Below, piece after piece: positions 5,893-7,102 of a stretch of 18,247 nucleotides of DNA. Made by a program: the position numbers and the translations under genes. The notes beneath the pieces are model-generated. The model did not search any database. It was given only the letters and a program-made list of their open reading frames with translations, and was not told the DNA's origin. Source of the stretch: Armatimonadota bacterium (GTDB taxonomy: Bacteria; Armatimonadota; SYMT01); NCBI GenBank assembly GCA_046292385.1, contig JBKBRF010000055.1, positions 22,582 to 40,828 on the forward strand. The letters are read 5' to 3'. Each line of letters opens with the position of its first letter. Positions within the stretch are counted from its first letter, which is position 1.

Positions 5893-6633
5893 CTACCGGC
5901 CGGAGAAGAACTCGTCGTCGGTCCTCCCGAGGTGGTGTAGCTGCTGCGAGGCGAGCGGCTCGGTGGTGCTCTTGACCCGGGGAGCCAGCGACTTCGCATG
6001 GCCGTCCGCAAAGATCACGTTCGTCATGCCGCCGTGGCGGAACTGGGAGGTCGGCGCGTTGTACGCGAGGGTGCTGCTCGGCGGGAAGAGCCCGAAGCTC
6101 TCCCGCACCGCCGGCGGGTTGGTCCACCACTCGTAAGTCGCCGCGTCGCCGAAGACGATGCAGCTCGCCGGCCGCTGGATCAACGCCTCGTGCACTCCCG
6201 GAGCGCTCCAGTTCTCCGTCAGATAGGCGTAGTTGTAGCCGTAGCCGGCGGTAGCGCCGTCGTACTTCGGCAGCGCGGTGAAGCTGGGGCACTTCTGCAC
6301 GTCGCCGTTCCGCAAGTAGGGATAGATCAGCCCCTGGGTCTTGTCGACCTTTCCGCCCACCGCCAGGCCGTACCAGGTCTGCGGATTCCGCCAGTCGTGC
6401 TGGAAGTACATCCCGTCGTGGTCCTGCACGTACAGCTGCGTGGCGGTCCCGAGCTGCTTGAGATTGGAGAGGCAGGTCGTCTTCCGGGCTGCCTCCCGGG
6501 CCTGGGCGAACACGGGGAAGAGGATCGCGGCGAGGATGGCGATGATCGCAATCACCACCAGCAGCTCGATCAGCGTAAAGCCGCGCCGCCGCGCGGGGAC
6601 GGCGGGAATGAGGGTCCGGACTCCGGTGCACAT
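5893..6633 (-). CDS. Prepilin-type N-terminal cleavage/methylation protein with DUF1559 and H-X9-DG domains
   Basis: Class III signal [48 protein letters not shown] and C-terminal [14 protein letters not shown] (H-X9-DG at 6001-6036). ATG 6633 is preceded by GGAGGAGCC. Confidence 0.92.
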
Positions 6634-6708
6634 GGCTCCTCCGATCGCTCCCGCAGGAGCGGACAGGGCAACGCGGCGCGGTCGGCCGCTTCCCGGGAGC
6701 AGTCCCAG

Positions 6709-6743
6709 AATCACGAAACGCCTCTCACCAGGGGCGAGAGGCG
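6709..6743 (-). terminator. Hairpin with partial U-tract in the riboswitch expression platform (possible attenuator)
   Basis: Stem arms CGCCTCTC (6719-6726) and GAGAGGCG (6736-6743), followed on the minus strand by TTTCGTGATT. Confidence 0.4.
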
Positions 6744-6874
6744 GGAAACGGCCGGCGCACCGGAGCCGCGGATCCCACCGGCGGAGCGGGCGTGCCGCGG
6801 AGGCCGGAGGAGCAGGGCCGGGTGCGCGCGTGTCCGTCCGGCCCCTTTGTCCGAAGGGGGAGTCGGCCGAAGCT

Positions 6875-7037
6875 CCCGAAGTGCAGGTCTCCTGGCTCCC
6901 GGATCCTCGCTCTCCGCGCCTTCTCCTCTCGGATGGCTGCTGCGGATCACTTCCCGGTTACAGTGGCGGCACCGCGCCGGCTTTCCACCGGCTTCCCTAT
7001 TCTTCCCGGCTCCTTACGAGCCGGGACACACTTCAGG
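6875..7037 (-). ncRNA. Cobalamin (B12) riboswitch
   Basis: Minus strand contains AATAGGGAAGCCGGTGGAAAGCCGGCGCGGTGCCGCCACTGTAA, an internal GCCA...GAAGGC and the B12 box GAGCCAGGAGACCTGC. P1 is closed by CCTGAAGTG/CACTTCGGG. Confidence 0.95.
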
Positions 7038-7071
7038 CCACGCGAACGATGCGGTTTTCAATGACGCTGGA

Positions 7072-7102
7072 GTTATAGCACGGGGCGCGTTTGGCGCGTC
7101 AA
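7072..7102 (-). promoter_or_regulatory. Candidate promoter for the riboswitch-DUF1559 transcript
   Basis: TTGACG (7097-7102), 19-nt spacer, then TATAAC (7072-7077) preceded by TGC. It sits about 35 nt upstream of the riboswitch P1. Confidence 0.5.

Follow-up and report, generated by a model that had tools for sequence, protein, structure and literature searches.

The DNA analysed here, called the window below, is a stretch of 18,247 nt (C55:22582-40828) from the genome of an Armatimonadota bacterium, which comprises 7.04 Mb on 91 contigs and is rated 98.45% complete. Our subject is a cobalamin riboswitch on its minus strand and the gene that follows it, which encodes a pilin-like protein of the DUF1559/H-X9-DG family. 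An earlier note, made from the letters of the window, had tied this DUF1559 paralog to B12. Our comparisons of related genomes support this link as real, conserved and specific to one clade of the family, and they point to a place for the protein in the uptake of the vitamin. C-numbers designate contigs of this genome (the own genome), G-numbers genomes of relatives, L-numbers loci, and X-numbers sequencing runs.

A cobalamin riboswitch precedes a pilin-like gene

Scanning the window with cmscan gave a single Rfam match, the cobalamin riboswitch RF00174 at 6865-7048 on the minus strand (100.6 bits, E 1.6e-24, gathering score 31.5). The match spans model positions 1-189 of 189 without truncation and encloses the complete B12 riboswitch that the earlier note had read at 6875-7037, so that its proposed assignment to RF00174 is confirmed. 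A leader of 232 nt separates the aptamer from the start codon of the pilin-like gene. This expression platform contains a terminator-like element (6707-6742, minus strand), in which a 10-bp hairpin, GCCUCUCGCC-CCU-GGUGAGAGGC at 6742-6720, is followed by the U-rich tract GUUUCGUGAUUCU at 6719-6707. The hairpin lies 125 nt behind the aptamer and was present in both the minimum-free-energy and the centroid fold of 6625-6880. Promoter-like hexamers can be read by eye at 7072-7102 on the minus strand, TTGACG (7102-7097) and TATAAC (7077-7072) with a spacer of 19 nt.

The pilin-like gene (P0001) occupies 5893-6633 on the minus strand, with ATG at 6633-6631, the stop ending at 5893 and a product of 246 aa. 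A Shine-Dalgarno-like GGAGGAG (6636-6642, minus strand), read from the sequence, stands five nt ahead of the ATG. The next gene downstream, mscS (4927-5802, minus strand), encodes an MscS-type mechanosensitive channel with Pfam MS_channel_2nd and MS_channel_1st domains, and the MscS models of NCBIfam match its product, all under their cut-offs. Between the pilin stop and mscS a GC-rich hairpin (5822-5841, minus strand) was found in the minimum-free-energy and centroid folds. It is a possible end of the transcription unit, with a fold z-score for this stretch of +0.32, which is not significant and no better than that of shuffles. A -10-like box of the next gene, TGGTAAACT, was read by eye at 5849-5857. 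It is plausible that the pilin-like gene is the only gene in the riboswitch-controlled unit. As the earlier note had stated for this unit, no btu genes, cobalt transport genes or genes of B12-independent enzymes were found by Pfam and NCBIfam scans of the window proteins.

A twin riboswitch heads a btuFCD operon

The own genome contains two RF00174 matches, both with 100.6 bits (150 of 993 candidates scored), and an nhmmer profile likewise found only these two. In a blastn search against the own genome, a block of aptamer and expression platform (6705-7066, minus strand) recurred at C47:4359-4720 over 362 nt with 98.9% identity and unrelated flanks. The copies differ by one mismatch near the 5'-end and three in the U-tract; the remainder is identical. 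Identity begins just after two different -10-like boxes, in the window immediately downstream of the promoter-like hexamers, and stops just after the 10-bp hairpin with its U-rich tail. These limits indicate that the repeated unit is the transcribed leader itself, i.e. aptamer plus expression platform.

The copy on C47 precedes a 117-aa open reading frame (ORF), two Peripla_BP_2 (BtuF-type) genes, the second with a lipoprotein signal, a FecCD gene and an ABC_tran gene, and thus an arrangement btuF-btuF-btuC-btuD. Hence, the own genome has a canonical inner-membrane B12 importer that shares its regulator with the pilin-like gene, and the latter belongs to the btuFCD regulon. The stand-alone character given to the gene in the earlier note has to be corrected accordingly, as the gene is no separate alternative to canonical uptake. 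Most likely the pilin-like protein acts upstream of the btuFCD importer.

Two further features of the C47 operon were observed. The product of the first BtuF-type gene (L003:3007-3960) has a Cys-rich DUF5522 segment at its N-terminus, lacks an obvious signal peptide and may be a cytoplasmic B12-binding protein. The 117-aa ORF (L003:3969-4322) had no match in Pfam. An ORF of 117-118 aa is conserved between riboswitch or pilin gene and btuF in the own genome as well as in two members of its family (L042, L053; 130-142 bits) and may encode another part of the B12 system.

Data of other studies were searched for the stretch around the riboswitch. In the independent soil DNA run X3, contig pieces match 6590-6745 and 6818-7200 letter for letter and extend from the duplicated block on either side into the flanks specific to the window, so the junction of riboswitch and gene does not stem from a misassembly in this record only. 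Soil and root DNA runs contain 55-69% of the sampled words of 5700-7200. Two rhizosphere RNA runs contain small shares of the stretch. A contig of X15 is confined to the aptamer (6825-7044, with 1 difference), a segment that the two genomic copies share unchanged; what X19 contributes to the pilin coding region differs at many sites and derives from relatives; and a deep pile at 6465-6617 corresponds to the N-terminal helix common to thousands of paralogs. As these RNA runs were available as contigs only and DNA carry-over is possible, they say nothing on transcription or attenuation.

Riboswitch-pilin pairs are widespread in the phylum

The pairing was followed through 61 genomes, namely the own genome and those of 60 relatives within the phylum. 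An RF00174 match was obtained in 60 of them, and outside the own genome 75 matches reached the gathering score. All 75 were taken with 7 kb downstream, and the downstream frames were sorted by comparison with the proteins of the window and of C47. A pilin-like homolog with a complete gene model was the first gene at 45 of the 75 sites (41 of the 60 genomes), and at four more sites a pilin gene lay 1.2-3.2 kb downstream of the riboswitch. Orthologs thus do carry the riboswitch, the absence of which the earlier note had named as evidence against its proposal. In 19 of the 45 loci genes of the BtuF-type (periplasmic binding protein, PBP), FecCD or ATP-binding cassette (ABC) class follow on the same strand. 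The 30 sites without a pilin gene in first place are followed by genes for TonB-dependent receptors, BtuF/BtuC, NrdD, CobT, cobalamin adenosyltransferase and ExbB/ExbD, as well as two beta-propeller/dockerin proteins and some frames without Pfam match. Since these sites control the expected genes, the riboswitches of the phylum behave normally.

The seven genomes from the same family or order all have the pair. In G001 and G006 the order is riboswitch, pilin gene and a homolog of the 117-aa ORF, followed by a btuF-type gene in G001 and by the contig end in G006; in G005, G007 and G004 it is riboswitch, pilin gene, btuF, btuC and btuD. Because the pilin gene belongs to a single riboswitch operon in these relatives, the arrangement of the own genome looks like a split operon of which both halves kept or regained a riboswitch. 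The same division into riboswitch plus pilin gene alone and a second riboswitch plus btuF/CD was found in G019, G027, G034, G036 and G045.

The high identity of the two riboswitch copies shows that the duplication, or a gene conversion, was recent, and the pilin-like gene of the window has no transporter gene as neighbour. It might be argued from this that the 362-nt block landed by accident in front of an unrelated paralog and that the resulting regulation is meaningless. However, such an accident would not account for riboswitches before orthologs in 41 of 60 relatives and in 7/7 of the same family or order, nor for the 73% identity of the window protein to that of G007, which stands at the head of a riboswitch-pilin-btuF-btuC-btuD operon. 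We consider it very improbable.

At two sites (L048 of G053 and L050 of G041) the gene of a dockerin or beta-propeller protein (DUF5074/YNCE-like, NHL) stands behind the riboswitch, and a pilin gene comes only 2.2-3.2 kb downstream. The pilin of L048 lies outside the B12-linked clade described below, and that of L050 was not placed because of the motif filter. The dockerin/beta-propeller protein may be a further surface capture component.

The B12-linked proteins form a clade

In an IQ-TREE phylogeny of 93 mature sequences, 46/46 riboswitch-linked proteins fell into one set of 51 (Shimodaira-Hasegawa-like approximate likelihood ratio test, SH-aLRT, 96), and 42 other paralogs of the own genome fell outside it. 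A 111-row IQ-TREE additionally contained 15 proteins linked to thiamine pyrophosphate (TPP) riboswitches and three cobalamin-riboswitch-linked proteins of other sources, one of them a metagenome-assembled genome of the Chthoniobacteraceae. Here, 49/49 B12-linked rows were placed in one clade of 53 (SH-aLRT 99), and the 15 TPP-linked rows were located elsewhere in two groups. For a 165-row FastTree, 72 background pilin-like genes from Armatimonadota, Planctomycetota-Verrucomicrobiota-Chlamydiota (PVC) and other bins were added, which had been gathered by the N-terminal motif alone. In the corresponding clade (support 99; 59 rows), 48 rows are linked directly to a riboswitch and 2 follow one at a distance of 1.2-2.2 kb; of the 72 background rows, 68 were placed outside.

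According to Rfam scans, 3 of 79 background pilin-like loci have a cobalamin-class riboswitch, directly in L130 and L134 and at a distance of 2 kb in L109. In the latter, from a Chthoniobacteraceae bin, the riboswitch heads a cluster of a PEP-CTERM protein, an unknown protein and a pilin. The enrichment of riboswitches in this clade over other DUF1559 paralogs, proposed as a check in the earlier note, is therefore present, with the reservation that the set was gathered through the riboswitch and that the clade is imperfectly exclusive. On the short contig of L134, binned under the doubtful label 'Clostridium sp.', it is an AdoCbl-II riboswitch (RF01689, 44.7 bits, L134:49-124) that directly precedes a B12-group pilin-like gene.

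Scores of a single protein do not separate the clade, as distant riboswitch-linked orthologs reached 89-180 bits and the best own paralog 136 bits. Because of this overlap, a clade profile with leave-out calibration was needed. Each of the 46 members was removed together with its relatives above 60% identity, and the left-out members scored 213-302 bits.

The pilin-like gene alternates with BtuB-type receptors

BtuB is the TonB-dependent outer-membrane receptor for cobalamin, composed of a Plug domain and a 22-strand beta-barrel, and its gene is commonly controlled by a cobalamin riboswitch. A Plug/TonB_dep_Rec gene was found behind a cobalamin riboswitch in ten relatives (G008, G010, G021, G023, G024, G025, G026, G038, G050, G056). 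None of these ten has a riboswitch-pilin pair, and none of the 41 genomes with such a pair has a riboswitch-receptor pair; in nine genomes the first gene is of neither kind. The best match of the clade profile in the ten receptor genomes reached 194.8 bits, below all 46 left-out members, so that no clade-level pilin was found in genomes with a riboswitch-controlled receptor. Both states occur within the families f3 and f16, so this alternation does not go back to a single old split.

The pilin-like gene thus shares with btuB the regulator and the slot, first behind RF00174 and ahead of btuF/btuCD, with 10 receptor genomes, 41 pilin genomes and none with both. In contrast, the protein has no sequence or fold relation to BtuB. 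With 246 aa and one N-terminal hydrophobic helix it lacks Plug domain and beta-barrel, and its energy would come from pilus ATPases rather than from TonB. Our claim is functional replacement, not membership in the BtuB family.

In the own genome MetH and a MetE-like gene are present, CbiC was not found, and no Plug match was obtained at the completeness of 98.45%. From MetH and the absence of CbiC and Plug matches, the bacterium appears to be a B12 user that imports the vitamin across the outer membrane without a TonB-dependent receptor. Regarding the search for btuB and btuF recommended in the earlier note, btuF-type genes are encoded on C47, but no Plug-domain receptor was detected. The genome also gave 6 Secretin, 15 T2SSE-family ATPase and 1 prepilin peptidase (Peptidase_A24) matches.

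In G056, whose other riboswitch controls a TonB-dependent receptor, a cobalamin riboswitch is located directly ahead of exbB-exbD (L070). The energising ExbB-ExbD system thus appears to be B12-regulated itself.

The protein has a prepilin-type N-terminus

The description of a 246-aa prepilin-type DUF1559 protein in the earlier note was borne out, and an H-X9-DG motif can be read in its sequence. Pfam N_methyl (PF07963) matched with 40.7 bits (cut-off 21.2) and NCBIfam TIGR02532 with 36.6 bits (cut-off 16.3). PF07596 (SBP_bac_10/DUF1559) scored 33.3 bits against a cut-off of 23.3, but only over profile positions 2-31 of 268; in the precomputed Pfam assignment, the query and the majority of its close relatives carry PF07596. 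The prepilin motif G|FTLIE places the predicted cleavage site between G18 and F19 and a glutamate, E23, at +5, and both F19 and E23 are invariant in 46/46 aligned sequences. The H-X9-DG motif corresponds to H200-x9-D210-G211, where D210 is invariant, while H200 and G211 occur in 90% or more of the 46 sequences; no H-X9-DG model matched in the NCBIfam scan at E<=0.01. C54, C115, Y68, W87, Y106, R199, H200, D210 and H212 are conserved family-wide. Pfam scans of P0001 for Plug (PF07715), TonB_dep_Rec (PF00593) and Peripla_BP_2 (PF01497) gave no match.

The family is large, with about 54 DUF1559 paralog ORFs in the own genome and 4932 relatives at E<=1e-20 among 8000 candidates scored. Database names of relatives are generic, e.g. 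'DUF1559 domain-containing protein', or, in JGI for relatives at 72-76% identity, 'prepilin-type processing-associated H-X9-DG protein'. One UniRef name, 'DUF1559 family PulG-like putat', is cut off and presumably ends in 'putative transporter'. If this ending is correct, curators may already suspect transport for PulG-like DUF1559 proteins.

An AlphaFold2 model based on the 46-sequence alignment (predicted local distance difference test, pLDDT, 91.3; predicted template modelling score, pTM, 0.83) consists of a helix of residues 21-71 and a mixed globular domain. In a VIA-align comparison with 48,161 chains, pilins and pseudopilins filled the top 24 rows, but with low Z (PilA4 5.7, ComP 5.0, PilV 4.7, EpsG 4.6, PulG 3.7). 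Foldseek against PDB gave no match at E<=0.001 and weak pilin matches only. A predicted complex of pilin residues 44-246 with residues 25-317 of the lipoprotein BtuF from C47 scored 0.01, 0.31 and 0.01 against a mark of 0.32 and, without controls, counts neither way.

A prepilin-type helix could also serve as a simple tether. The protein would then be a periplasmic binding protein anchored to the inner membrane, which forms no fibre and passes B12 to BtuF/BtuCD. The Pfam name SBP_bac_10 for DUF1559 and the frequent position of the pilin gene immediately ahead of btuF fit this explanation, and the regulation and clade data agree with it equally well as with a fibre subunit. However, an extra binder would be useful together with either route across the outer membrane, so that the mutual exclusion with riboswitch-controlled BtuB-type receptors (0/10, 0/41) would be left unexplained, and BtuF-type lipoproteins are already there. 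Moreover, the best fold matches, though at low Z, are pilins and pseudopilins that assemble, and the prepilin motif is preserved with an invariant glutamate at +5. We therefore regard a tethered binder as unlikely.

A parallel with thiamine

Among the 79 background loci, one has a TPP riboswitch. In this Chthonomonadales bin (L161:102-3178) the riboswitch is followed by a DUF1559 pilin-like gene and genes for thiamin pyrophosphokinase and a sodium:solute symporter. Among the best 30 TPP riboswitch (RF00059) loci of the relatives, a pilin-like gene was located within 600 nt downstream in 12 (L189, L193, L194, L196, L199, L201, L204-L207, L210, L216) and within 1 kb in 2 more. The FMN riboswitch (RF00050) was found in 1 of the 61 genomes, too few for a third comparison. 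With TPP riboswitches before a separate DUF1559 group, the idea of the earlier note that the family consists of substrate-capture modules gains independent support. As a second vitamin shows the same architecture with a different paralog group, this parallel is the strongest hint that the DUF1559 family may supply ligand-specific uptake parts.

Pilins commonly mediate attachment, and behind the pilin gene a transporter gene is missing in 26 of the 45 riboswitch-pilin loci. A pilin induced by B12 starvation could hence attach the cells to vitamin producers or particles without handling the vitamin, and the same logic could hold for thiamine. But B12- and TPP-linked proteins belong to separate clades, as expected of ligand-specific parts and not of a general attachment fibre. 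The operon position immediately before btuF in 19 loci and the complementary distribution with BtuB-type receptors also speak against an adhesion or contact pilin, and we consider it improbable, more so than a tethered binder.

Other features of the window

The remaining genes identified by Pfam and NCBIfam encode a DUF5131 protein, a TcmP-like protein, an S9/esterase, a glucuronyl esterase, an S8 subtilase and a Na/Ca exchanger; no genes for type IV pilus or type II secretion assembly machinery were found within the window. The DUF5131 (phage Gp37/Gp68-like) and TcmP-like ('three-Cys-motif partner') genes lie at 3006-4791 with a G+C content of 57-63% compared to about 70%, and this stretch may be an acquired island. 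Upstream of the promoter region of the riboswitch, an intergenic or small-ORF segment (7247-7424) has copies with 82-83% identity on C23 and C26. The last approximately 180 nt (18070-18247) are a repeat found by blastn with 84-100% identity on at least 30 other own contigs, often at contig ends. Probably it represents a mobile or repeated element at which the assembly breaks.

Comparison with known systems

Competence pilins and pseudopilins such as ComP, which is DNA-binding, and ComGC bind their substrate outside the cell and bring it in through a secretin by retraction. The pilin-like protein has the prepilin signal in common with them (the NCBIfam ComGC and PilA models match its N-terminus, all below their cut-offs), and ComP is among its best, though weak, structural matches (Z 5.0). 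Capture with subsequent hand-over to a periplasmic binder and an inner-membrane transporter would be a further likeness. In contrast to these systems, the proposed substrate is a vitamin and not DNA, the DUF1559 H-X9-DG domain is larger and unrelated in sequence, and no assembly genes adjoin. With GspG/PulG/EpsG it shares the N-terminal motif and helix (TIGR01710, 35.6 bits, below the cut-off of 88.85; EpsG Z 4.6, PulG Z 3.7), but it remains under the equivalog cut-offs, is almost twice as long, and its clade is found with vitamin-uptake genes under a riboswitch and not in a gsp operon.

BtuG/BtuH-type surface lipoproteins of Bacteroidota capture B12, work with BtuB and are encoded in riboswitch-controlled loci. 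Accessory capture of B12 at the surface ahead of the transporter, under riboswitch control, is what we propose for the pilin-like protein as well; the difference is that this is a pilin-like subunit, and no BtuB was found in the own genome. In Planctomycetota, Verrucomicrobiota, Lentisphaerota and Armatimonadota, whose genomes carry tens to hundreds of them, the DUF1559 (PF07596)/H-X9-DG proteins form one of the largest families without a known function, and we know of no ligand or role assigned to any of them. The protein of the window is a member of this family, but unlike the family at large its clade has a ligand-specific regulator together with functionally informative neighbours.

A full-text search of the literature outside subscription journals and supplements found no report linking pilin-like or DUF1559 proteins to cobalamin or TPP riboswitches, and the passages on a pseudopilin seen in PMC3543383 do not include any about B12. 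The riboswitch is ordinary and the family already known; for a riboswitch-controlled, pilin-like candidate component of vitamin uptake that alternates with BtuB we found no described counterpart.

Proposed function in corrinoid uptake

We propose that plentiful adenosylcobalamin would cause the leader to fold such that the hairpin and U-tract at 6742-6707 stop transcription, and that the pilin-like gene would be transcribed when B12 is scarce. The prepilin peptidase would cleave the protein after G18, whereupon it would become part of a fibre or pseudopilus that is built by one of the genome's type IV pilus or type II secretion-like machines and works through a secretin. This fibre would serve the step performed elsewhere by BtuB, namely the transfer of the 1.3-kDa vitamin from the exterior through the outer membrane to BtuF, the lipoprotein of the periplasm, and to BtuCD. 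The pilin might either capture B12 itself or only make its passage possible.

The narrower claim that the pilin-like gene functions in corrinoid acquisition we hold to be likely. That it encodes a B12-repressed prepilin-type subunit, acting upstream of BtuFCD at the BtuB step, is a more demanding proposal to which we give moderate confidence. Direct binding of B12 by the pilin is conceivable, and here we lean slightly towards the negative. Of the corrinoid or cobalt ligand suggested in the earlier note, cobalt is the less likely half, because the partner genes encode BtuF-type binding proteins and BtuCD and not cobalt transporters.

Several points weigh against a B12-repressed uptake pilin. 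We infer from the DNA the repression by B12, processing, assembly, the place of action, and direct binding or a role in passage. The promoter described in the earlier note can be read by eye, but a consensus scan of 5600-7400 with spacers of 16-18 nt gave no promoter-like site; it gave no terminator-like site either. In 26 of the 45 pilin loci, as in the window, no recognised transporter gene follows the pilin gene; 23 of these loci were judged on at least 4.3 kb. The best pilin match of the model, at Z 5.7, is below a compelling level, and no corrinoid-binding fold was recognised in the model by Foldseek or VIA-align. Only six conserved positions are clade-specific (G101, L103, Y137, F161, A162, F198); they are weakly diagnostic, and no obvious cobalt ligand is among them. 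The Fisher value for the exclusion of pilin and receptor, 1.2e-6, is descriptive only and overstated since the genomes are kin. Plug domains occur somewhere in 30 of the 60 relatives, many pilin genomes included, and pilin genomes with Plug receptors elsewhere may possess a riboswitch-free BtuB.

Further points of this kind concern the clade. Finding the riboswitch-linked set via the riboswitch biases the count inside it. The 59-row clade also holds 5 own paralogs and 4 background genes without riboswitch, the latter having none in 1.4-2.5 kb upstream, and one foreign riboswitch-linked row on a long branch falls outside the clade in the 165-row tree. One of these own paralogs, with a clade-level score (213 bits; L219:3908-6274 on C43), is followed by a PepSY_TM gene and may thereby be tied to a different ligand, for example an iron chelate. 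A second own paralog of clade level (247 bits, on C59), also without riboswitch, lies near PDZ and Bmp/PnrA genes.

A riboswitch is a sequence-readable statement of the metabolite to which a gene is tied. Here, such statements tie one clade of DUF1559 proteins to B12 and another group to thiamine and put both at the heads of uptake operons, and the B12 clade trades places with BtuB. Tentatively, and with less confidence than in the role proposed for the window clade, DUF1559/H-X9-DG paralogs of Armatimonadota and PVC bacteria might be modular 'uptake pilins', each for one nutrient, on secretin-based retractable fibres or pseudopili that would jointly do the work of the TonB-dependent receptors of other diderms. 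The riboswitches would then name the first two ligands, cobalamin for the window clade and thiamine for another group. If the proposal is true, vitamins, and perhaps other nutrients as well, would have a new way across the outer membrane, which would help to account for the import of a 1.3-kDa cofactor by diderm bacteria that lack TonB-dependent receptors. This would be relevant to vitamin exchange in soil and hot-spring communities, where such organisms are B12 consumers.

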